Positions 6,997-26,196 are shown, counted from the first letter of the stretch. The stretch: DNA of 64,000 nt from Deltaproteobacteria bacterium (GCA_021159305.1 JAGGSB010000087.1:2927-66926), one strand, 5' to 3'. Numbers and translations: made by a program. The notes: generated by a model from the letters alone, not told the origin.

Positions 6997-7795
6997 CTAT
7001 TTCCTCCAATGCCTTTTTCAATTCTTCATCTGTTGGAGCTACACCATGATACTCCACTTTATCTTCCATAAATGAAACCCCTTTACCTTTTATAGTATGG
7101 GCAATAATTACAGTGGGTGATCCCTTATTGTTTTTCGCCTCTTCAAATGCACTTATCAATTCAGAAAATTTGTGCCCATCAACAGATTTTGTATAAAGGC
7201 CAAAGGCCTTAAATTTCTCCTCCAGAGGATAGATGTTCATCACATCCCTGCATCTTCCATCTATCTGTAAAGTATTGTTATCTATAACTACACATAGATT
7301 ATCCAATTTATAATGGGAAGCGGACATAAAAGCCTCCCAAACCAGCCCTTCATCCATCTCTCCGTCACCCATCAAACAATAAACACGAAATGGATTTTTG
7401 TCCAATTTCCCGGCTAAAGCCATTCCACAAGCCTGGGGTAAACCATGAGCCAACGAACCGGTAGAAGCTTCTACCCCCGGCAAATATTTAGAATCTGGAT
7501 GTCCTTGTAAGGGACTACCCAATTTTCTCAATGTCCACAACATATCACGGGCGAAAACACCGGCCTTACTCAATACAGCGTACAAAGCAGGCGCAGCATG
7601 TCCTTTAGATAAAACAAACCTATCCCTGTTTTCATCAGATGGTTTTTTCGCGTCATAACTCATAACCTTGAAATAAAGACTAACCAATATCTCCACACAA
7701 GACAATGAACCTCCCACATGCCCCGATCCTGCTATATTGAGCATCAAAAGAATGTCCTTTCTGATCTCCTTAGCTATCTTTTCCAAGTCTTCCAT
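6983..7795 (-). CDS. transketolase, N-terminal (TPP-binding) subunit
   Basis: 270 aa. GSGHVGGSLSCVEIL and GDGEMDEG TPP-binding motifs. Confidence 0.85.
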   Translation of the reverse strand: MEDLEKIAKEIRKDILLMLNIAGSGHVGGSLSCVEILVSLYFKVMSYDAKKPSDENRDRFVLSKGHAAPALYAVLSKAGVFARDMLWTLRKLGSPLQGHPDSKYLPGVEASTGSLAHGLPQACGMALAGKLDKNPFRVYCLMGDGEMDEGLVWEAFMSASHYKLDNLCVVIDNNTLQIDGRCRDVMNIYPLEEKFKAFGLYTKSVDGHKFSELISAFEEAKNNKGSPTVIIAHTIKGKGVSFMEDKVEYHGVAPTDEELKKALEEIDEGD

Positions 7796-8753
7796 CTTTT
7801 CTCCTATAAATAAATTCTAACATATTTTGAATGGTAAAATCTTGTGGATAAACTACTTTTCCCCAATCCTTTAAAACCTTTGCCGTCACCGGCCCTATCG
7901 CTACAAACAAGCCTACATTTTTACTCCAATCTTTCCACATATCACCAAACAACTCAATTGTATGCTGAACCGTAGAAGGACTGGTAAACATAGCATAATC
8001 GATATAACTTACATTCTTTGCCCTCTTAACAAAAGCATAGCATAAAGGGGGAATAATGTTTCTATACAGAGAAAGTACCTTTATTTCCGCCCCCCTCTTC
8101 TTCAATTCCCGTTCTAAAACACCTCTCGTTTTCTCTGCCTGGGCAAGAAGTACCCTTCTGCCCCTTATATCCGACTCGGCTAAAGCCTCAACCAATTTTT
8201 CGCCTTTAAAGGTTTTAGGAACAACGGCCGCTCGTACTCCAAAATTATTTAAGACTTCCTCTGTTTTTTTGCCCACACAAGCAATTTTTATAGCATCCAA
8301 TTTTTTTATATCATCATTTAAAAATCTGAAAAAATAATTCACTCCCACTTTACTGGTAAAGATAATCCAGTCTACATCAGGAATTTTAACCTCTTTAACA
8401 AGAGGTTTAAACGATATAGAGGGAAAGGGGTAAACGCAATTTCCATCATGCTCCAGCTCAACCGTAACATTTATCAAATCATATTTTGACATAGAGAGAA
8501 AGACATGCTTCTTATCCAATGTATTTTCTTCTTTGTTTGTTTTGCTGTTCATAAGGATCAATCCTTCTTTCTTTTCCGCCTCAGAGGCATCCTTAAAAAA
8601 CACAACCTCTGTCTCCTCCCTGCAAAAGAGAAGCATGTTAGGCGAAAGGCCATCCTGAATGAAAATGCGTTTTGCAATTTCTAAAGACTTCCTTAGTTTT
8701 TCTGGAACAAGATATAAAGGCAAAGAATTTAGCACAAAAACTTCTCTATCCAT
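7770..8753 (-). CDS. hemD: uroporphyrinogen-III synthase (HemD-like) with N-terminal extension
   Basis: 327 aa. The C-terminal ~240 aa resemble the two-lobed HemD fold (IIFTSKVGVNYF...AIGPVTAKVL). Position downstream of hemA-hemC supports the call. The N-terminal ~90 aa are unassigned and the start is uncertain. Confidence 0.55.
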   Translation of the reverse strand: MDREVFVLNSLPLYLVPEKLRKSLEIAKRIFIQDGLSPNMLLFCREETEVVFFKDASEAEKKEGLILMNSKTNKEENTLDKKHVFLSMSKYDLINVTVELEHDGNCVYPFPSISFKPLVKEVKIPDVDWIIFTSKVGVNYFFRFLNDDIKKLDAIKIACVGKKTEEVLNNFGVRAAVVPKTFKGEKLVEALAESDIRGRRVLLAQAEKTRGVLERELKKRGAEIKVLSLYRNIIPPLCYAFVKRAKNVSYIDYAMFTSPSTVQHTIELFGDMWKDWSKNVGLFVAIGPVTAKVLKDWGKVVYPQDFTIQNMLEFIYRRKDGRLGKDS

Positions 8754-9624
8754 CTTTTATCAATTTATTCATCTTCTTTGCACACCTTTCCGGAAGCTCC
8801 TTCATACAAGAACTTTCTTCTACAAAGTTAAACATCTTCCATTCTTTGTCTTCTTTTACAGCATACATCACAGATAAAGTCGCCCCGTCTCCTTTTGATG
8901 CAACATAAGCACCTATAGGATCATTGCATCCTGCTCCCATTAGGCGTATAAACTCTCTTTCCGCACTGATACATTCAAATGTCTCCTTATCGTTTATAGA
9001 ATACACAATACCCTTTACATTCGAGGTATCCATTGTTTCTATTCCTATTATCCCTTGTCCGCAAGCGGGGACAATAGGCAATGTCTCCATGTTTATATTC
9101 AAGTTAAGCCTCTTCATGGCTGCTTTTGCCAAAACAAGTGCTTCATATTCACCTTTAAATAGTTTTTTTATTCTCGTATCCACATTTCCTCTCAAGGCCT
9201 TAAAACAAAGATCTTTTCTTAAGGCTTTCAACTGAACTATCCTTCTTAGAGAAGATGTACCAATCACTGCTCCTCTTTTTAAATCTTTAAAATATCCATC
9301 TCTACACAAAATAACATCGGATGGCTCTCCTCTTTTTAAAGTAGCGGCAATAGTAAGATGAGGGAAAAGAATCGCAGGAACATCCTTCATACTATGCACA
9401 GCTATATCAATCTCCCCATTTAAAAGTTTTTCTTCCAATATTTTCACAAACAAACCTTTCCCTCCATACAAGGATAAAGACTTATCTAAAAACCTGTCTC
9501 CTTCTGTCTTTATAACCTTTATTTGTACTGAAAGATTTGGAAAGTTACCAAGAATTGCTTTTTTTACTGCATTTGCTTGCCAAAGAGCTAATTTGCTACC
9601 CCTTGTTCCCAAAGTAATTGTCAT
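8746..9624 (-). CDS. hemC: hydroxymethylbilane synthase (porphobilinogen deaminase)
   Basis: 292 aa. LGTRGSKLALWQA N-terminus and cofactor-binding Cys region (GAGCNDPIGAY). Confidence 0.9.
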   Translation of the reverse strand: MTITLGTRGSKLALWQANAVKKAILGNFPNLSVQIKVIKTEGDRFLDKSLSLYGGKGLFVKILEEKLLNGEIDIAVHSMKDVPAILFPHLTIAATLKRGEPSDVILCRDGYFKDLKRGAVIGTSSLRRIVQLKALRKDLCFKALRGNVDTRIKKLFKGEYEALVLAKAAMKRLNLNINMETLPIVPACGQGIIGIETMDTSNVKGIVYSINDKETFECISAEREFIRLMGAGCNDPIGAYVASKGDGATLSVMYAVKEDKEWKMFNFVEESSCMKELPERCAKKMNKLIKDG

Positions 9625-10934
9625 TTTTTAGCATCGGCAGTTTCAGCAAAGAAACAGTGCGGACTGGCACTGGTGATTTCTAAAGCAAAAATCTTTTTTA
9701 TTGCCTCTATGTAAAGATCACCTTCAGGATGATTGAGAAAATCTTTTATGTTCTGCGTGGGCTCATGTAAAAGCTTATTGAGCACAGACTTAGTCATAGC
9801 CCCTATCAACATCTTATCCTTGTCTTCTATTCTATTTCCTAATTTTTTATACAACTTTTCCAATTCCTGATTTTTCAAAACATCGATCTTTTCCCTCAAT
9901 TTTGCCACTACCAATTCAAAGTCTAATGACTCTGTATAGCTAATATAACTCTCTACTTCTTGCTCGATAAGTTTTTCTGCTTTCTGGGCATCAGCTTCTC
10001 TAAATTTAATTGCCTCATTCACTATATCCTTCAGCTCATCTATGTTATATACAAAAACCCCAGGAATATCGGCTACACCATCTTCAACATCTCTCGGCAC
10101 AGCTATATCCATGATAAGCAGATTTTTTACCTTCTTTTCCACATCTTTTCTAAATATAACGGGTAGTGGAGAAGCAGTAGATGTTATTACCATATCCACA
10201 TCATTTATAAATCTTCCTATTTCATTCAGTGAAATAGCTCTTGCTCCACAGCTAAAAGCTAATTCTCCTGCTTTTTTTGGTGTCCTATCAACAATGTATG
10301 CCACATTCGCCTGCCCCGCAAGAAGATATTTTAAGGATAGCTGAGCCATTTCTCCCACGCCAACTATCATCGCTTTCTTTCCCTCAATACTACCACCAAA
10401 AAATTCCCTAATCTTAATTACCGCCGCATAACTTATAGAAACAGGTTTTTCGCCTAACCGGGTTTCCCTTCTCACCCTTCTAGCCACACCAAAAGCCCTT
10501 CTCATCAGTCTGTTTAAGGAAACCCCAGATGTAGAAAACTCCACCGAACACCTATATGCTTCCTTCATCTGCCCTAAAATCTGCGGTTCTCCTACAATCA
10601 ATGAATCTAAACTAGACGTCACTCTAAACACATGCCTTATCGCTTCTTCATCCAATCTTGTGTAAATAAAGGGTGTTATGTTCTCTTTCGCTATACCCTT
10701 AAAATCCTGTATAAAATCCAGAGTATTACTTATACAAAAACAGGGGTCCTTAGTTGCTCCAATTATTTCTACTCTATTACAGGTAGAGAGAATCATTACC
10801 TCATCAATACTCTTTTGAGCATACAATTTCCTCAACGGTATATCTATATTCTCGGCATCAAAAGAGAGCTGTTCTCTTAATGAGAAAGGGGATGTCTTAT
10901 GATTCAGCCCTACAACAAATATTACACGTTTCAT
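9621..10934 (-). CDS. hemA: glutamyl-tRNA reductase
   Basis: 437 aa. ILSTCNRVEI catalytic Cys motif, NADPH-binding GVGEMA, C-terminal dimerisation helix. Confidence 0.9.
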   Translation of the reverse strand: MKRVIFVVGLNHKTSPFSLREQLSFDAENIDIPLRKLYAQKSIDEVMILSTCNRVEIIGATKDPCFCISNTLDFIQDFKGIAKENITPFIYTRLDEEAIRHVFRVTSSLDSLIVGEPQILGQMKEAYRCSVEFSTSGVSLNRLMRRAFGVARRVRRETRLGEKPVSISYAAVIKIREFFGGSIEGKKAMIVGVGEMAQLSLKYLLAGQANVAYIVDRTPKKAGELAFSCGARAISLNEIGRFINDVDMVITSTASPLPVIFRKDVEKKVKNLLIMDIAVPRDVEDGVADIPGVFVYNIDELKDIVNEAIKFREADAQKAEKLIEQEVESYISYTESLDFELVVAKLREKIDVLKNQELEKLYKKLGNRIEDKDKMLIGAMTKSVLNKLLHEPTQNIKDFLNHPEGDLYIEAIKKIFALEITSASPHCFFAETADAKK

Positions 10935-10935
10935 A

Positions 10936-11907
10936 CTAATGTTCTCTATTTACCGAATAATCTATCAACGCCTCCAGAACTTCTCTGAATGGTGAAATTT
11001 CCATAAAACTTATCGCTTTCTTTGCCCGCTCAGCATAATCTTCTGCTTTTTTTAAACTATACACAATACCACTCCTCTCCTCTACTAATCGCTTTATCTT
11101 TAACAGGTTTTCTTTTTTCGCGTCAGATTTTTCCAATTTTCTCACTGCATCCATCAGATCTCCATCATCATTATGTAAGCTGTGTATTAAAGGTAAAGTT
11201 GCCTTACCTTCTCTTATATCCTTCATCGTCTCTTTTCCCATCTTTTCCTCGGTTCCCATATAATCTAATACATCATCATAGATCTGAAATGCAATACCTA
11301 AATTTTTCCCCATCTCAGAGAATAAATCTATTCTCTCCTTGTCACAACCGGAGAATATTGCTCCTACAACGCTACTTGCTTCAATTAAAATACCTGTCTT
11401 CATATATATTATCTCTAAATACTCTTTCTCCGTCAGTTCCGTTTTTCCCGTATTTTCTATCTCTTTTGTTTCTCCCTCAGAAAGAGTATAAGCTGCCTCT
11501 GATATTTTTTTGGCAATTTTCTTGTCATAGTCTAAAACCACATTATAAGCCAAAGAATACATATAGTCACCGGCGAGAATAGATGCTTCATTCCCAAACA
11601 AGCGGTTAGAAGAGATAACCCCTCTGCGCACATCAGCTTCATCTATCACATCATCGTGCAACAACGATGCAGTATGCACCAGTTCCATAATCGCTCCCAA
11701 CCTGTATAATGGTGTCATATCCCCCTCATAGTTTGAACATAGAGCAGAATAAACAACCAATAATGGTCTCAACCTTTTCCCTGTTTTAATTGTCTGGTTA
11801 AAAACCTGCCGAGTAAGAGAAGATTGGGGGACAAACATCTTATACAACTGTTCATTTATCTTTTTAGTGTGCGTAGATATAATTTTTTTTAACCTATCTT
11901 TATCCAT
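10936..11907 (-). CDS. trans-polyprenyl diphosphate synthase (IspB-like; hepta/octaprenyl, quinone side chain)
   Basis: 323 aa. First and second Asp-rich motifs LLHDDVIDEADVRRG and FQIYDDVLDY. Confidence 0.8.
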   Translation of the reverse strand: MDKDRLKKIISTHTKKINEQLYKMFVPQSSLTRQVFNQTIKTGKRLRPLLVVYSALCSNYEGDMTPLYRLGAIMELVHTASLLHDDVIDEADVRRGVISSNRLFGNEASILAGDYMYSLAYNVVLDYDKKIAKKISEAAYTLSEGETKEIENTGKTELTEKEYLEIIYMKTGILIEASSVVGAIFSGCDKERIDLFSEMGKNLGIAFQIYDDVLDYMGTEEKMGKETMKDIREGKATLPLIHSLHNDDGDLMDAVRKLEKSDAKKENLLKIKRLVEERSGIVYSLKKAEDYAERAKKAISFMEISPFREVLEALIDYSVNREH

Positions 11908-17877: not shown

Positions 17878-19167
17878 TCATAAATGTTTATTTTTTGACA
17901 TAACGGGTAAATTTTTTTCTAAATTTTCTATTTCATGTCTAAAAACTTCATCTTTTTGTATTGAATCTTCTATTTTTTTAACAGCGTGGATAATTGTTGC
18001 ATGACTATTTATGTTAAATTTTGATTTAATTTCCGATAGAGAGTGGTTAGTTAGTTTTCTTATTAGATATATGGCAATTTTTCGCGGCTTAATAATTTCT
18101 TTATTTCTTTTACGGGACAACATATTATCTAATGTAATATGGTAGTTGTCGGCGATAGCTTGTTGAATATTCTCCATGCTTAATTTTTCTTTTTTATAAG
18201 CAATCTCTTCGCTAAGAACATTTTTTGCGAATTCAAGGTCTATAGGGTGCTTTATAATTGAGGAGTAGGCACCGATTTTTATAAGTACACCTTCTATTTC
18301 TCTCACATTTGTATCTATATATTTTGCTAAAAGGTTTATTACATCATCACTTATTTCTATATTATTAAATTGTGCTTTTCTTTTAATAATAGCTATTCGT
18401 GTTTCAAGCTCTGGTGGCTGGATATCCACAATAAGCCCCCAGTTAAATCGTGATTTTAATCTATCTTCTATATCAGGAATAAGAGCGGGGGGATTATCTG
18501 AGGTAATCACAATTTGTCTTTGTCCTTCGTATAGTGTATTAAATGTGTGAAAAAACTCTTCTGCTGTTCTCTCTTTGCCAGAGATAAATTGTATATCATC
18601 TATAAGAAGTAAGTCTATGTTTCTATATTTATTTCTAAACTCTAACATTGTCTTGTTTTGAATAGATGTGATGAGTTCATTGGTAAATTCTTCACTGGAA
18701 ATATAAATAATATTTAAATTATCGTTTATGTTATAGGTGTGGTTATAAATGGCATGCAGAAGATGTGTTTTTCCTAAACCCACTCCGCCGTATATAAACA
18801 GTGGATTATAAGCTTCACCAGGATGTTCGGCTACAGCATAACTGGCGGCATAGGCTAATTGATTATTGGGGCCAACTACAAAATTGTCAAATGTATATTT
18901 TCTACTAATATTATCCTTCTTTTTATTTTGTTTCCTTGTATACTCACTATTTTTTATCTTTATTTTTACCTTTTTACCTTTTATTTTCTCTAATATTTTT
19001 TCCATCATATCTAAGTAGTGATTTTCTATCCATTTTTGTACAAAAAGATTAGGGACAGAAAAGACAAAGTCTTCCCCGTCAATTTTTTTCTCTGTAATTT
19101 GTGATATCCACACATCACATTCCTTCCCGTATTGCTTGTATAGTTCGTCACACAATTTATCCCACAT
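17878..19167 (-). CDS. dnaA: chromosomal replication initiator protein DnaA
   Basis: 429 aa. AAA+ Walker A GGVGLGKTHLL, sensor motifs, C-terminal HTH DNA-binding domain. Confidence 0.95.
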   Translation of the reverse strand: MWDKLCDELYKQYGKECDVWISQITEKKIDGEDFVFSVPNLFVQKWIENHYLDMMEKILEKIKGKKVKIKIKNSEYTRKQNKKKDNISRKYTFDNFVVGPNNQLAYAASYAVAEHPGEAYNPLFIYGGVGLGKTHLLHAIYNHTYNINDNLNIIYISSEEFTNELITSIQNKTMLEFRNKYRNIDLLLIDDIQFISGKERTAEEFFHTFNTLYEGQRQIVITSDNPPALIPDIEDRLKSRFNWGLIVDIQPPELETRIAIIKRKAQFNNIEISDDVINLLAKYIDTNVREIEGVLIKIGAYSSIIKHPIDLEFAKNVLSEEIAYKKEKLSMENIQQAIADNYHITLDNMLSRKRNKEIIKPRKIAIYLIRKLTNHSLSEIKSKFNINSHATIIHAVKKIEDSIQKDEVFRHEIENLEKNLPVMSKNKHL

Positions 19168-19376
19168 GTTTTTAGATTATATATTTTTGGTGGGTTTTTT
19201 TCAAGCAAGTGAATTGCTGTAAAAATCGGAGTTTTTACGGCAATGATTATCCTTATTAAGAAAATAAGGAGACAATCTGTGGGGCTAACTGCCGTTCATA
19301 TTAAGTATAAAAAAGGGAAGCAGATCCTGGCCCCATCATCCATTAGATAGACAATGGGGCCTCTGGTAGAAGGGTT
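19168..19376. promoter_or_regulatory. dnaA upstream leader/promoter region with GC-rich hairpins and DnaA-box-like elements; alternative oriC segment
   Basis: 209 bp non-coding. Contains TGATTATCC (7/9 match to TTATCCACA) and AAACCCACCAAA on the minus strand, which resembles the Thermotoga 12-mer DnaA box AAACCTACCACC. Also palindromes ccttattttcttaataagg and gtaaaaactccgatttttac, and a GC-rich stem-loop. Confidence 0.35.
19329..19361 (-). terminator. possible terminator hairpin after the cytochrome operon (GGCCCCAT/ATGGGGCC stem, 17-nt loop)
   Basis: Perfect 8-bp GC-rich stem 16 nt after the cytochrome c stop codon. The U-run (CCCUUUUUU) lies only ~14 nt further downstream, so it is not a textbook intrinsic terminator. 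Confidence 0.3.
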
Positions 19377-19682
19377 TTATTTCTTTAGAGTATTCGTATA
19401 TGCATTTACATCTGCCAACTCTTTTTCCGTCAGCTTACCTTTCAACATCTTCATCTGTGCTTCTTTGCCTATCCATTCTTTTAATTCCTGCACAGTATAA
19501 GTTTCTCCCTTAAAGAGTTTTGTTAATTTGAATGGTTTAGAACCATCTTTACCGTGACAAGCCTTACACATTCCTTTTCCATTATAGATCGCTTTACCAG
19601 CACCTACATCTTGAGCAAAACTCAAAGAGGAAGCACCAGCTACAAACAACACTGCCGCTGCTAAACAAATGAACTTTTTCAT
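19377..19682 (-). CDS. monoheme c-type cytochrome (class I), periplasmic
   Basis: Single CKACH heme-binding motif. I place the start at the internal ATG at 19680-19682 because a perfect AAGGAGG lies 5 nt upstream of it. That start gives the signal peptide MKKFICLAAAVLFVAGASSLSFA. The ORF-track start at 19730 lacks an SD. Confidence 0.75.
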   Translation of the reverse strand: MKKFICLAAAVLFVAGASSLSFAQDVGAGKAIYNGKGMCKACHGKDGSKPFKLTKLFKGETYTVQELKEWIGKEAQMKMLKGKLTEKELADVNAYTNTLKK

Positions 19683-19731
19683 AAAAACCTCCTTGGATGT
19701 TTTTACGCTCAAATCTTTAATTTGTGTCATT

Positions 19732-20922
19732 TTACTTCACCTCCTTTACACTTTTTTTCTCCCACGGATCTAGAAATAAAGAGAAAATGATCATCAAGAT
19801 AAATGGTAGAATTAAAAGACAAATACCTACACCCACACCTTCATGTGTTCCAAATACCTCCGTAAAATGGAATGTTCCCAACAAACTGCGAGAAAGTTCC
19901 TGTCCCCCTATAACCACATTCCATCTCATCAAAAAAACAGAACCTAAAACAAATAACGATGCAATAAGCATTAATCCTTGTCGTAGGTGCTTTTTGGACC
20001 ATGGTATTATCCACTCCAAGAATATAAGAATAATAAACGGAACACCTGAGCCGATGATTGCTTGTCCCCATACATAACTACCCATTAGCTCATTTTTTAT
20101 AAGATCTTTTATGGGCATTGTTGCTTCTATGTGTGCATAGAATATTTGTAATATTTCCAATCCCTCAAATGCTAAATCAACAATTATAAAGCCAAATAAC
20201 AGCTGAATAAAGGAATTTAAAGTTTTGTGATTCATTGGTTCTCTTTTTATAATCACACAGCAGATCCAATAAAGTACATACATCATCGCTACACCAGACA
20301 CTACTGCCGAAAGCAAGAATATGAATGGCATTAACGGAGATGCCCACCAGTGATTTGCCTTTATTGAACCAAAGATAAACCCTACATATCCGTGCAAGAA
20401 ACAGGCTGAAGGAATGCCAATAATGGCTAATATATGAGCGACCTTGTGAACAGTTTTCAGTGCCTTCTCAGAAACATCATGTGAACCCAATAACAATATC
20501 CGTAGGATAAATCTACGGAAAGATGGTTTTTTACTTTCTGCGCCTTCTACAATTTTTTCTCTAAAGTTGAACCATATTTCCAGAAGCAATATAAATAAAT
20601 ACCATAGATATACGAAACCAAACCCAGCCATGGCAGAAGTAAGATGCGGAGTCATAAATATTTCAAATCCTCTTAAGTGATGTGTTAAGTGAAATTCAAG
20701 GGGCATTGCACAAACAAGAAGAAAACCCAACGAACAGATTAAAGCAAGTCTTGATACAGGCTTAAAGTTTTCATCATGAAATACTTCATAGAATGCAGAA
20801 ACAACGAATGCTCCCGCCACCAATCCTGTTATATAGGGGTATATAACCAGCATGAAGCTCCACTGAAACCAACCCTCATTGGGATAAATAAACCCTTTTA
20901 TAAGACTCAAATCTACTGGCAT
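19732..20922 (-). CDS. NrfD/PsrC-family polytopic membrane quinol-interacting subunit
   Basis: 396 aa, ~8-10 predicted TM helices. Length and hydropathy match the NrfD/PsrC/ActC/HmcC family. Start overlaps the upstream FeS gene stop (TAATG). GGAGGTG SD. Confidence 0.75.
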   Translation of the reverse strand: MPVDLSLIKGFIYPNEGWFQWSFMLVIYPYITGLVAGAFVVSAFYEVFHDENFKPVSRLALICSLGFLLVCAMPLEFHLTHHLRGFEIFMTPHLTSAMAGFGFVYLWYLFILLLEIWFNFREKIVEGAESKKPSFRRFILRILLLGSHDVSEKALKTVHKVAHILAIIGIPSACFLHGYVGFIFGSIKANHWWASPLMPFIFLLSAVVSGVAMMYVLYWICCVIIKREPMNHKTLNSFIQLLFGFIIVDLAFEGLEILQIFYAHIEATMPIKDLIKNELMGSYVWGQAIIGSGVPFIILIFLEWIIPWSKKHLRQGLMLIASLFVLGSVFLMRWNVVIGGQELSRSLLGTFHFTEVFGTHEGVGVGICLLILPFILMIIFSLFLDPWEKKSVKEVK

Positions 20923-21683
20923 TATCTCACCTCCGAATTAATCCCGTTATATTCAACCCTCGCTTCACAACCCATATCGGGTTTCAACTCACTGACTCTA
21001 TATTTCTCAACAAATTTACTTATGTCGCTGTTTTTATCTTTCAGGTCACCAAATATTCTCGCTTCTACCGGACAGGCTTCCACGCAAGCTGGGTTCAATC
21101 CTTTTGTAATACGGTGGTAACACCAGGTGCACTTATCCGCACATCCTACTTCATCGTTCATATATCTTGCACCAAAAGGACAGGCCTCTATGCAATATCT
21201 ACAACCAATGCAGTAATCGTTGTCTACCAAAACCACACCATCCTTGGTCTGATATGTCGCTCCTACTGGACATACCTGGACACAAGCAGGAACTGCACAC
21301 TGATTGCATAGTTTAGGCACAAAAAAGGCTTTTGAAACCTCTTTTTCTTTGTATTTATCAGGAAAGCTGTCATATCCTCCATTCGGTGAATCAACCTTTG
21401 GTTTTTCTTCACCTTTAAGGTACACATACCTTTCCACCCAGCACCGAAAATGATATGGATCTTTTGGAACATCATTTTCCTCTTTGCACGCTCTCACACA
21501 AGACCCGCATCCTATACACTTAGTAGAATCTATACCAAAGCCCCAATAATGCTTAGACCAATCGTATCCTTTTAACCAATCTTTTTCTTCCTGTGCAGAT
21601 GCAGAAGGTTTCAATACAGTGAGATAAACACCAGCGGCTAAGGTAATTGTTCCTGTTGCTTTTATAAAATCTCTTCTTTTCAT
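20922..21683 (-). CDS. Tat-exported 4x[4Fe-4S] ferredoxin-type subunit (NrfC/PsrB/ActB2-like)
   Basis: Twin-arginine signal MKRRDFIKATGTITLAAG...ASA. Four Cys clusters (CIGCGSCVRAC, CNQCAVPACVQVCP, CIGCRYCIEACP, CTWC...CVEACP). ATG at 21683 is 5 nt after AGGAGG. The track start at 21689 is a GTG overlapping the SD. Confidence 0.8.
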   Translation of the reverse strand: MKRRDFIKATGTITLAAGVYLTVLKPSASAQEEKDWLKGYDWSKHYWGFGIDSTKCIGCGSCVRACKEENDVPKDPYHFRCWVERYVYLKGEEKPKVDSPNGGYDSFPDKYKEKEVSKAFFVPKLCNQCAVPACVQVCPVGATYQTKDGVVLVDNDYCIGCRYCIEACPFGARYMNDEVGCADKCTWCYHRITKGLNPACVEACPVEARIFGDLKDKNSDISKFVEKYRVSELKPDMGCEARVEYNGINSEVR

Positions 21684-21692
21684 TTCCACCTC

Positions 21693-22167
21693 CTATTTAT
21701 AAAATGCAGGTTTGTGAGTATTTGTATGACAGGTTGTACATGCCATGCCGGGAAAATGAGCCTCTGGTCCTTTCAATGTTATCTGTGGCATACTCTTTGG
21801 CTTTGAAGGTAACATTTCATGACAATACATACACTGTTTGGTTACATCTGGTATCTTGCAACCATGAGAAAGAACAACTCCTTCCTTAGGATGGGCTACC
21901 CCAAGACCATGACAGGCTTCACATTGCAAATCCCTATGAGCACTTGACGGTTCCTTGGAACACAAATCATTGTATTCCTGCTCGTGACAGGTTTTACAGG
22001 CCTCCTTTCCTACAAGTTTTGTTGGAATGTTCAGCTGTTTGGATATATTAGCTGCTCTATAATGACCAAACACACCCATACTTTTCGGTTTGGTGAGACT
22101 TTTCAGAGCGACATAAGCTACAACAATAATAAGCACAATCAAAAAGACTCTTGCTGTCCAACTCATT
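21693..22167 (-). CDS. membrane-anchored tetraheme cytochrome c, NapC/NirT/NrfH family
   Basis: Four CxxCH motifs (CKTCH, CEACH, CMYCH, CTTCH) after one N-terminal TM helix. Length ~158 aa matches NrfH/NapC. ATG at 22167 is preceded by AAGGAGG. The track start at 22196 is a GTG with no SD. Confidence 0.7.
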
Positions 22168-22196
22168 CCCAACCTCCTTTTTACAAAATTATTCAC

Positions 22197-22225
22197 ATTA
22201 TAAATGAAATATCAAAAGTTGTAAA
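22197..22225 (-). promoter_or_regulatory. sigma70-like promoter for the cytochrome/FeS/NrfD operon
   Basis: Minus strand reads TTTACA, a 17-nt spacer, then TATAAT, ~30 nt upstream of the SD/ATG of the tetraheme gene. Confidence 0.4.
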
Positions 22226-22231
22226 TAAAAA

Positions 22232-22918
22232 TTAAACCCATTTTTTTAGCTTTTCTTTTGCTTTTTCCACCTCCTCTTCATTTATTGAACTTATTTTCAC
22301 AAAAACATTACCATCCCTGCCATAAGAACCTATCTTTACATTATATCTTTTTAGAGTTTCTTTAATAGCAAATATAATTTGCGATTCTTTTTTTTCTGTC
22401 TTCAACCACTCTGTATATATCTTTTCCCCCTGAAAACATCCTTTTATCTTTTCAAACATAGCTTTCATCTCTTTAGGCACGCCAGGCAAAACAAATATTC
22501 TATCTTCAACGATAAAGCCAGGAGCTACACCCACATCGTTTTCTATGAGACTGCACCCCTCGGGTAAATCTGCCATTTTTAGCACATTTTCTATTCTTGC
22601 CTTTTCTTTTATGCCCTTTTCTCTTATTTTTTCTTTTATTGTTTGTTCGGCGATTTTGTCTCTTACAATCTTTTTATTCAAGGCCTGTGCTACAGCTTCT
22701 CTGGTCTTATCATCAGGAGTAGGACCCAATCCACCGGTTATAATAATCTTATCTCGGTAATTTTGAATTTCATCGGCAATAGCGAAAACATCATCGGGCA
22801 AGGTAATAATCTTTTCCGGAATACTGCCTAAATCTGTCAATCTCTTTGCCAGATAGGTAGCATTCGTGTTTTCTATATCTCCGGCCAAAAGCTCATCGCC
22901 GATACAGAGAATCACCAT
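22232..22918 (-). CDS. CinA-like / molybdopterin-binding (MoCF biosynthesis) domain protein, stand-alone
   Basis: 228 aa. N-terminus VILCIGDELLAGDIENTNATYLAKRL and GGLGPTPDDKTREA are signature motifs of the CinA N-terminal/MoaB-MogA fold. It lacks the CinA C-terminal deamidase domain. Confidence 0.6.
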   Translation of the reverse strand: MVILCIGDELLAGDIENTNATYLAKRLTDLGSIPEKIITLPDDVFAIADEIQNYRDKIIITGGLGPTPDDKTREAVAQALNKKIVRDKIAEQTIKEKIREKGIKEKARIENVLKMADLPEGCSLIENDVGVAPGFIVEDRIFVLPGVPKEMKAMFEKIKGCFQGEKIYTEWLKTEKKESQIIFAIKETLKRYNVKIGSYGRDGNVFVKISSINEEEVEKAKEKLKKWV

Positions 22919-25155: not shown

Positions 25156-26196
25156 TCAATTGTCTTTTTCTTCTAAAAATTTAATGACGCCCCTTGAGAT
25201 GCCTTCAGCAATACATCTCCTGTATTTTTTTCCTGAAAGGAGTTGTGCATCTGAGGGATTTGTCACAAACAACGTTTCCACCAATATGCTGGGCATACGG
25301 GTATCCACTAAAACATAGAAAGGAGCTTGTTTTACACCGATGTTTTGAGATACACCGTGCAATTCTCTGACAATATCTTTCTGCACATAATAAGCAAGTT
25401 TTTTTGATATATTGAGCTTTGCACTTTGTATTAAAGAAAGTATTATCTTGTTTATATCACCCATCTTTTCGATGGGCACATTATTTTCGCGGGCTGCAAT
25501 CTGTATTGCCCTCTTATCGGATGTCGCATTCAATATCCAGGTGGATGTACCTCTCACCTTTTTATTATTGCAAGCATTACAATGAATAGAGACAAACACA
25601 TCTGCGCCTTTCTCATTGGCAATGTGCGCCCTTTTGGAAAGTGGGATAAAAACATCTGTTTTTCGGGTAAGGTATACATTTACGCCCCTCCTGGAAAGTT
25701 TCTTCTTTACTTCCTTTGCAATCTTTAAAACAATATCCTTTTCCCTTATCCCTTTAATCCCTACCGCTCCGGGATCTTTCCCCCCATGTCCAGGATCAAC
25801 AACTACTGTGTATTTTTTTGTTTTTTTCGAAGAAATAACAATTATTTGCCGAAACTTCTGCTTGGCAAACTTTGTCACCCAACTTTCTGGATAATCTTTG
25901 ATTAAAAGGTTCAGGGCTTTTATCCTTTCACTCTTATAATATGACAGTTTGTATCTCTTATACAAATCATTAAAGATGCATGCTCTTCTGTAGACAGATA
26001 TAGGTGCATATTTGGTTTTTGAATAATTTTCATATAGATATTTGTATTCATTGGCTACCTTTAAGAGTTTTTCCTTGTTAAAATTGTATGTATAATATGT
26101 TTCTCTATAGGATGCATTTTCATAGAGCGATTCTGCCCCTCTGTAGGTGAACGAAATACACAAGATGACAAGAAAGAAAAATAATATTTTCTTCAT
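25156..26196 (-). CDS. N-acetylmuramoyl-L-alanine amidase (Amidase_3, AmiC-like) with signal peptide
   Basis: 346 aa. Amidase_3 motifs VVDPGHGG and ADVFVSIHCNA, N-terminal signal peptide. Confidence 0.85.
   Translation of the reverse strand: MKKILFFFLVILCISFTYRGAESLYENASYRETYYTYNFNKEKLLKVANEYKYLYENYSKTKYAPISVYRRACIFNDLYKRYKLSYYKSERIKALNLLIKDYPESWVTKFAKQKFRQIIVISSKKTKKYTVVVDPGHGGKDPGAVGIKGIREKDIVLKIAKEVKKKLSRRGVNVYLTRKTDVFIPLSKRAHIANEKGADVFVSIHCNACNNKKVRGTSTWILNATSDKRAIQIAARENNVPIEKMGDINKIILSLIQSAKLNISKKLAYYVQKDIVRELHGVSQNIGVKQAPFYVLVDTRMPSILVETLFVTNPSDAQLLSGKKYRRCIAEGISRGVIKFLEEKDN

Follow-up and report, generated by a model that had tools for sequence, protein, structure and literature searches.

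A head-less tetrahaem-FeS-NrfD redox operon with a soluble monohaem cytochrome c in a deltaproteobacterial genome

A 64,000-nucleotide stretch of DNA from a Deltaproteobacteria bacterium (GCA_021159305.1, JAGGSB010000087.1:2927-66926; the whole stretch is referred to here as the window) carries, on its minus strand at positions 19377-22225, a tight operon of four redox genes. These encode a membrane-anchored tetrahaem cytochrome c, an iron-sulfur (FeS) protein with motifs for four [4Fe-4S] clusters, an NrfD-family quinone-interacting membrane protein and a soluble monohaem cytochrome c. The operon is a lineage-specific member of a widespread, genomically recognised family of tetrahaem-FeS-NrfD modules that lack a catalytic subunit, or head, and within this family it is set apart by its accessory gene, the soluble monohaem cytochrome. 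We consider it probable that the operon encodes a menaquinol:cytochrome c oxidoreductase resembling Cbc4 of Geobacter and alternative complex III (ACIII). A first-pass annotation of the DNA had arrived at a minimal quinol:cytochrome c oxidoreductase; this is the most economical reading of the data presented below, and agrees with the published hypothesis for homologous modules.

Results

A four-gene operon without a catalytic subunit

All four open reading frames (ORFs) predicted in the first-pass annotation are present, and reading of the sequence corrected the start positions of three of them. The tetrahaem cytochrome gene (21693..22166, minus strand, as are all features of the operon) encodes 157 residues. 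Its start is ATG 22166, behind a GGAGG Shine-Dalgarno sequence (AAAGGAGG); the alternative GTG at 22196 overlaps the -10 hexamer of the putative promoter, and gene calls on identical metagenome contigs also give 157 residues. The FeS protein gene (20922..21683, 253 residues) starts at ATG 21683 and is followed by the gene for the NrfD-family subunit (19732..20922, 396 residues). For the last gene, that of the monohaem cytochrome (19377..19682, a 101-residue precursor), the start is most likely the internal ATG 19682 behind AAGGAGG, with a longer ORF reaching 19730; NCBI annotates the protein as a 101-residue 'c-type cytochrome' (MCD6130396.1). Successive gene junctions are 9 nt, a 1-nt overlap (TAATG) and ~1-50 nt, and a GGAGG-type Shine-Dalgarno site precedes each of the four genes, in agreement with the single operon and strong ribosome-binding sites proposed at first pass. 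All four genes are under purifying selection, with ratios of nonsynonymous to synonymous substitution rates (dN/dS) of 0.10-0.34 against two relatives of 78-91% amino-acid identity (0.16-0.22 for the tetrahaem cytochrome gene).

A sigma-70-like sequence, TTTACA-17-TATAAT, lies upstream of the first gene (22197..22225) and matches at 11 of 12 positions. It had been described as the operon's own promoter; the sequence is as described, but a scan showed promoter-like sites in this AT-rich region to be no commoner than expected by chance, so that the promoter is plausible, not demonstrated. Downstream of the last gene is a terminator-like region (19309..19361) comprising the inverted repeat GGCCCCAT...ATGGGGCC followed by a second short stem and a T-run; a scan of the region placed a terminator-like site at 19334-19317, followed by CCTTTTTTAT. 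An Rfam scan of the window gave no RNA element.

The gene content of the window was taken from precomputed Pfam annotation of identical contigs, which covers nearly the whole 64 kb. This annotation contains no molybdopterin oxidoreductase, NrfA-type or multihaem reductase, or terminal oxidase gene, bearing out the earlier statement that the operon has no catalytic subunit within the window. Nor is any molybdopterin subunit or candidate reductase linked to the module in three close relatives.

The NrfD-family membrane subunit

The membrane subunit, with ~9 predicted transmembrane (TM) helices, was correctly placed at first pass in the NrfD family: its score for Pfam PF03916 is 104.8 bits (cut-off 25.8; E = 9.3e-30; residues 19-341). 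Against the NCBIfam models for NrfD and DsrP it scores 45.9 bits (cut-off 347.6) and 30.1 bits (cut-off 350), respectively. Sequence searches of the PDB with the protein and with its 16-sequence profile detected no chain; its link to ActC and PsrC is one of predicted fold only. An AlphaFold2 model built on 59 sequences (predicted local distance difference test score, pLDDT, 83.8; predicted template modelling score, pTM, 0.86) has nine long helices and is closest to ActC of ACIII (8k9e_C, 6btm_C and 6f0k_C; template modelling scores 0.70-0.75, E = 5e-8 to 1.5e-7), with ActF and then PsrC as the next structural matches. Like PsrC and ActC, the modelled protein folds into two four-helix bundles, and the model matches the quinol-binding ActC better than it does the non-quinone ActF or the 8-TM PsrC.

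His78 and Ser96 are invariant among the 59 sequences and lie 18 residues apart. This is the spacing of His74 and Ser92, which are listed as quinone-site residues of E. coli NrfD (PMC8076601), a correspondence at the level of sequence spacing. The distribution of K/R-rich loops (residues 120-151, 226-231, 306-310 and the C-terminus), taken with the modelled helix positions, suggests that the His78-Ser96 loop faces the periplasm.

The FeS subunit

The FeS protein is of the PsrB/NrfC/DsrO/CbcT type and is predicted to be periplasmic. Its description at first pass as a subunit with four [4Fe-4S] clusters, exported by the twin-arginine translocation (Tat) pathway, proved accurate: it has an N-terminal RRDFIK twin-arginine signal and 16 Cys residues in four ferredoxin motifs, each at least 99% conserved among 73 homologues, 60 of which carry the twin-arginine motif. 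It matches Pfam Fer4_11 (E = 2.9e-25); its domains are Fer4 only, with no molybdopterin-like ActB1 domain, and its nearest PDB relative is PsrB (2vpw_B, E = 5.7e-41). The top NCBIfam models are TtrB (195.7 bits, cut-off 416) and DsrO (190.4 bits, cut-off 200); NrfC and QrcC give 145 bits (cut-off 377.6) and 91.4 bits (cut-off 400). Since the FeS and NrfD subunits fall below those NCBIfam cut-offs, the operon is not an Nrf, Dsr, Qrc, Hmc or Ttr system.

The tetrahaem cytochrome

The first gene product had been classed as a NapC/NrfH-type cytochrome. It is anchored in the membrane and does contain four CxxCH motifs, but it gives no match to the NapC/NirT family (PF03264, Cytochrom_NNT) at E <= 0.01, none of 120 listed homologues carries that domain, and a profile of its family matches NrfH (2j7a_C) only in part (E = 0.005). 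Its Pfam matches are instead to Cytochrome_C554, C7 and c3_2, and the family profile finds, in the PDB, 6i5b, 5ze8, MtrA, the N-terminal part of octahaem nitrite reductases, c554 and NrfB, together with a weak match to ActA of ACIII (8k9e_A, E = 1.2e-3). A word-seeded search with the protein alone gave three close relatives only, and a profile of locus-derived homologues was needed to reach the wider family.

The N-terminal TM helix is followed by a conserved spacer of ~30 residues, containing an SFGxYGHYR-type motif with conserved P27, F30-G31, G34 and R37, and then by the four CxxCH motifs. These motifs and H77, H137 and H151 are invariant across two alignments, of 28 and 62 homologues, and H92 is at least 90% conserved, a pattern that would furnish the ligands for four bis-His haems; low haem potentials are likewise predicted. 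The conserved spacer between the anchor and haem 1, together with the presence of a dedicated NrfD subunit, argues that the cytochrome is not itself the quinol dehydrogenase, and in its role the protein would be CbcS- or ActA-like.

The monohaem cytochrome c

The fourth subunit has an N-terminal signal for the general secretory (Sec) pathway (...SFA/QD) and a single CKACH motif, in keeping with the soluble, exported monohaem cytochrome described at first pass. Its match to Pfam Cytochrom_C (PF00034) is marginal, at 21.5 bits against a cut-off of 21.3, and it scores 25.2 bits against PF13442 (cut-off 27). The best PDB relative is a cytochrome c4 (6q2u_A, E = 5.7e-6), with c554, c6 and c552 also found, and a Met residue aligns with the Met-ligand segment of cytochrome c4. 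These features place it among class I c-type cytochromes, with predicted His/Met haem ligation. Cytochromes of this class normally have positive potentials, far above that of menaquinone, so electron flow from menaquinol to a c4/c6-like carrier would be downhill. The gene is present only in the window lineage and in the relatives whose NrfD subunits are 85% (L008) and 88% (L091) identical, and is the sole lineage-specific gene of the operon, confined to this Desulfurellaceae-like lineage.

A conserved three-gene core with variable accessory genes

The closest relatives of the NrfD subunit are 95%, 88% and 85% identical; hundreds more follow at 41-49%, those of Candidatus Methanoperedens first. 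Species-representative genomes contain at least 594 NrfD relatives and at least 1340 relatives of the small tetrahaem cytochrome. We compared the loci of the best 80 of these NrfD relatives, which span Acidobacteriota, the archaeal Methanoperedenaceae, Thermodesulfobacteriota, Anaeromyxobacter, Chloroflexota, Bacteroidota, Gemmatimonadota, Ignavibacteriae, Zixibacteria and others. The three core genes co-occur strictly, and the order small cytochrome, FeS protein, NrfD subunit is kept in 75 of 75 assessable loci, the other five having been left out of the count because a contig end cuts through them. This comparison of synteny across related genomes had been proposed in the first-pass annotation.

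The small cytochrome mostly has four haem motifs; six or eight occur in a few lineages, and Methanoperedens has three CxxCH motifs and one CX4CH. In six loci (L054, L056, L064, L066, L075 and L079) the protein is an octahaem cytochrome of ~245 residues with eight CxxCH motifs, and appears to have arisen by duplication of the tetrahaem domain. Two paralogous cytochrome-FeS-NrfD modules stand side by side in L029, L064 and L075.

Gene content after the core varies by lineage, Methanoperedens having cytochromes with 5 to 12 haems. In three metagenome-assembled genomes (MAGs) of Thermodesulfobacteriota or 'Deltaproteobacteria' (L013:9240-11288, L077:7292-9232 and L078:9221-11134), the next gene after the core encodes a fusion protein and the one after that a heptahaem cytochrome. 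The fusion protein joins a NarI-like membrane domain, a 4Fe-4S dicluster domain and two CCG domains, and resembles DsrM/DsrK or HdrE/HdrD; these loci are a DsrMKJOP-like gene set in which the tetrahaem cytochrome replaces DsrJ. In many Acidobacteriota and Bacteroidota loci (L022:9221-10951, L087:2918-4591, L032:9166-10872, L083:2644-4287 and ~20 more) the gene directly after NrfD encodes a polytopic membrane protein of ~550-600 residues, with an N-terminal coiled-coil-like segment and no Pfam match. In these phyla the module may thus possess a further subunit that has so far escaped description. One Acidobacteriota MAG has, directly upstream of the module (L019:3212-6613), a gene for a 1133-residue protein in which cytochrome b/b6 (PF00033, PF00032) is fused to a multihaem cytochrome c domain carrying nine CxxCH motifs.

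Large ORFs flanking homologous modules were also sampled as possible hidden molybdopterin heads. The eight sampled encode secretins, tricorn-type proteases, kinases, a SpoIIE phosphatase and a cytochrome b-multihaem fusion; none is a molybdopterin enzyme.

Genomic surroundings and lineage

Besides the operon, the window contains dnaA, dnaN, gyrB, gyrA, polyprenyl synthase, hemA, hemC, hemD, transketolase and cell-envelope genes; iorAB, a gene for a CinA-like MoCF domain protein, glycolysis genes, 2-oxoacid:ferredoxin oxidoreductases and sucCD; and addAB-like helicases, rnpA, yidC, mnmE and gidB. The position of the operon beside dnaA, which the first-pass annotation had singled out as unusual, appears to be incidental, because in the 88%-identical relative L091 it is a DAHP (3-deoxy-D-arabino-heptulosonate 7-phosphate) synthase gene, in place of dnaA, that follows the operon, and because a scan for DnaA boxes found no cluster beside the operon; a meaningful dnaA position was rejected on these grounds.

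Several further features of this region were observed. Over its full length the window has more DnaA-box-like 9-mers than expected (37 against ~21), and these are unclustered in the spacer between the monohaem cytochrome gene and dnaA (19168-19376). The GC skew changes sign at ~26.2 kb, where gene orientation diverges (25156-26196 on the minus strand, 26240 onward on the plus strand), and elsewhere follows the coding strand. In an otherwise identical metagenome contig from the Joint Genome Institute (JGI), dnaA is called as two ORFs of 109 and 301 residues (L001:11756-13044), against an intact gene of 429 residues in the window (17878-19167); the split is probably a frameshift, assembly or population variant. 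The gene directly upstream of the operon (22232-22918, minus strand) encodes a 228-residue protein in which a MoCF_biosynth (CinA/MoaB-type) domain and, weakly, an FLAD1_M domain are recognised but a PncC deamidase domain is absent; it occupies the same place after iorAB in L008, L091 and L092. The polyprenyl synthase gene and hemA, hemC and hemD (7770-11907, minus strand) follow gyrA, ~8-12 kb from the cytochrome operon, and L091 has, ~5 kb downstream of its operon, a gene for the cytochrome c biogenesis protein ResB.

The window comes from a MAG that NCBI labels 'Deltaproteobacteria bacterium'. Its GyrB protein clusters at 90% with MAGs labelled Desulfurellaceae and Campylobacterota, and on this grouping the lineage is related to sulfur reducers. 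Nothing specific emerged from a literature search on terminal oxidases in Desulfurellaceae and Hippea.

Discussion

A proposed route for electrons

We propose that the four proteins form a single complex that passes electrons from menaquinol to a periplasmic carrier. Menaquinol would be oxidised at a site on the periplasmic side of the NrfD subunit, formed by an N-terminal PNE motif, His78 at the end of TM helix 2 and Ser96 at the start of TM helix 3, and the quinol protons would be released into the periplasm. The Tat-exported FeS subunit would be docked on the NrfD protein, and electrons would then pass through its four [4Fe-4S] clusters and along the four low-potential bis-His haems of the membrane-tethered cytochrome, to end on the class I (His/Met) monohaem cytochrome c. 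This soluble protein would in turn carry them to a terminal enzyme, periplasmic or membrane-bound, encoded elsewhere in the genome. By analogy with proposals for ACIII and Qrc, the NrfD subunit may also translocate protons.

Several points weigh against this scheme. The direction of electron flow is drawn only from predicted haem potentials. The AlphaFold2 model of the tetrahaem cytochrome is of low confidence (pLDDT 67.8, pTM 0.34, from 62 sequences), and a Foldseek search with it gave no usable match. The likeness to the Geobacter proteins CbcS, CbcT and CbcU is drawn from a published description and primer-derived fragments, and Geobacter with cbcS deleted showed no phenotype when tested on Fe(III) or Mn(IV).

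The least improbable of the alternatives, although one we consider unlikely, is that the module is not a general hub of the bc1 type but a dedicated anchor and electron feeder for one periplasmic reductase encoded elsewhere, such as a sulfite-, sulfur-compound- or nitrite-reducing multihaem enzyme, after the manner of MccCD-MccA or SirCD. Under H2/sulfite conditions Dissulfuribacter shows a ~100-fold rise in an NrfD protein whose gene lies near those for a tetrahaem cytochrome and an FeS protein, a set possibly similar to the core described here, and the best-scoring models for our FeS subunit are those of TtrB and DsrO. The accessory genes beside the same core also differ, comprising multihaem cytochromes, the DsrMK-like fusion or the membrane protein with no Pfam match, and thus suggest lineage-specific partners. 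However, neither the window nor the three close relatives have a candidate reductase linked to the module, and the fourth gene that is linked encodes a simple soluble carrier, not an enzyme. This alternative is in any case compatible with a menaquinol:cytochrome c oxidoreductase, from which it differs only in the downstream partner.

Electrons might also flow in the reverse direction. A Qrc-like cytochrome c:menaquinone oxidoreductase would feed electrons from the periplasmic oxidation of H2, formate or reduced sulfur into the menaquinone pool, for use, for example, in sulfur or polysulfide respiration in a Desulfurellaceae-type organism. Qrc and Nhc run the same FeS-NrfD redox dimer in this direction (Table 1 in PMC8076601), sets of four bis-His haems are typically of low potential, as in CbcS (~-150 mV), and the GyrB grouping ties the lineage to sulfur reducers. 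Against this, a dedicated class I partner of the c4/c6 type would make quinone reduction uphill, the QrcB-like and hexahaem QrcA subunits are absent, and the match to QrcC is 91 bits where the cut-off is 400. We regard the reverse direction as quite improbable.

A last possibility, that the ORFs do not function together and lie side by side by chance or in decay, can be dismissed as extremely improbable, being refuted by their conservation: dN/dS values of 0.10-0.34, tight or overlapping junctions, a Shine-Dalgarno site for each gene, a core order unbroken in all 75 assessable loci and conserved cofactor ligands.

A bolder version of the menaquinol:cytochrome c oxidoreductase is conceivable, and we offer it as speculation with a low chance of being right. 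Here the four proteins would be a self-sufficient, proton-translocating 'mini-ACIII', smaller than any other quinol:cytochrome c oxidoreductase known. As the sole enzyme of this kind in a Desulfurellaceae-like thermophile, it would feed a high-potential branch, reducing O2 or N-oxides through the c4-like cytochrome, in a lineage whose members are regarded as strict anaerobes that reduce sulfur. If true, the three-subunit core would represent a widespread, overlooked third solution to the transfer of electrons from quinone to periplasmic cytochromes, besides bc1/b6f and ACIII.

Significance

Many anaerobes and metal-respiring or electroactive microbes have no obvious bc1 complex or ACIII, and the link between quinones and periplasmic cytochromes is only partly known in them. 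The tetrahaem-FeS-NrfD module is very common, and its family includes the Methanoperedens clusters implicated in metal-dependent methane oxidation, yet neither purification nor assay of the whole complex is known. The present operon adds a lineage-specific variant to the family and no new principle, but a compact version from a thermophile, with a simple monohaem partner, could suit as a biochemical and structural model for the family, Geobacter Cbc4 included.

Comparison with known systems

The first-pass annotation held that the four-subunit composition lies outside the named complexes. For several of these complexes this is correct. With respect to NrfABCD, the NrfC and NrfD matches are below their cut-offs and the window has no NrfA or NrfB gene; with respect to DsrMKJOP, DsrO and DsrP are below cut-off and there are no DsrMKJ genes in the window; and with respect to QrcABCD, QrcC is below cut-off and no gene for a QrcB-like or hexahaem QrcA subunit is found. 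Complex iron-sulfur molybdoenzymes (Psr, Ttr, Dms, Arr) are set aside in the same way, there being no molybdopterin A subunit in the window, in close relatives or among the neighbours sampled. NrfHA and the NapC/NirT proteins share with the present cytochrome a small, N-terminally anchored tetrahaem c architecture, but the latter has no PF03264 domain, has a long linker before haem 1, and is accompanied by an NrfD subunit to which quinol oxidation is assigned. A review of NrfD-containing complexes does not list the tetrahaem-FeS-NrfD composition (PMC8076601), and this omission probably explains the impression of an unnamed complex. The core composition is nevertheless that of Geobacter Cbc4 and of gene clusters in Methanoperedenaceae, and a locus in cable bacteria is similar.

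ACIII offers an analogous chain, running from an NrfD-type quinol site through an FeS protein and a TM-anchored multihaem cytochrome to a monohaem cytochrome, and it is to ActC that the NrfD model is structurally closest. The present operon, which has a single NrfD gene, lacks the molybdopterin-like ActB1 domain, the second NrfD-like subunit ActF and ActD of ACIII, its cytochrome has four haem motifs where ActA has five haems, and the module has four subunits where ACIII has six to eight. Unlike in ACIII, all four predicted clusters have four Cys ligands, and the monohaem cytochrome has a Sec signal with no lipobox.

The 'DsrOhPh-tetrahaem' locus of cable bacteria, Desulfobulbales and other taxa, compared here by description, likewise has no catalytic subunit and combines an all-bis-His tetrahaem cytochrome with a DsrO-like FeS protein and a DsrP/NrfD-like membrane protein. 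It differs in gene order and in having a separate small TMH1 gene. This locus was earlier named a 'candidate alternative complex III', and for it a transfer of electrons from quinol to periplasmic cytochromes has been speculated (PMC13047784).

Cbc4 of Geobacter sulfurreducens (GSU0068-0070) consists of the anchored tetrahaem cytochrome CbcS, the 4x[4Fe-4S] protein CbcT and the integral membrane protein CbcU (bioRxiv 10.1101/2025.04.14.648717), and is proposed to be a quinol:cytochrome c oxidoreductase. CbcS has an anchor (residues 1-29), a linker (residues 30-58) and four bis-His haems, with apparent reduction potentials (Eapp) of ~-139 to -151 mV, and reduces PpcA. As matched by the published description, its core architecture is the same as that reported here. 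Primer-derived fragments of CbcS place DFGVHE at residues 30-35 and the first haem Cys at 64, and so fit the FG motif and spacing of the family, although they do not have the family-invariant Gly34. No monohaem cytochrome gene is reported in the cbcSTU operon.

The closest parallel by sequence is found in Methanoperedenaceae, whose clusters of NrfD-like, 4Fe-4S and multihaem proteins have been read as menaquinone:cytochrome c oxidoreductases; they are expressed during Mn(IV)-dependent methane oxidation, and their flanking cytochromes are thought to serve extracellular electron transfer (PMC7327174, PMC7082337). The NrfD subunits of these clusters are 46-49% identical to ours over 97% of their length, the homologue of the small cytochrome is found at E = 1e-17 to 1e-20, and an FeS homologue is present. 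In Candidatus M. nitroreducens the order of small cytochrome, FeS protein and NrfD subunit is identical, there is no catalytic head, and the proposed role is the same. The Methanoperedenaceae clusters differ in being flanked by cytochromes with 5 to 12 haems, where the present operon has one soluble class I monohaem cytochrome c. With homologous genes in the same order and no catalytic subunit, the operon described here is a module of the Methanoperedenaceae type.

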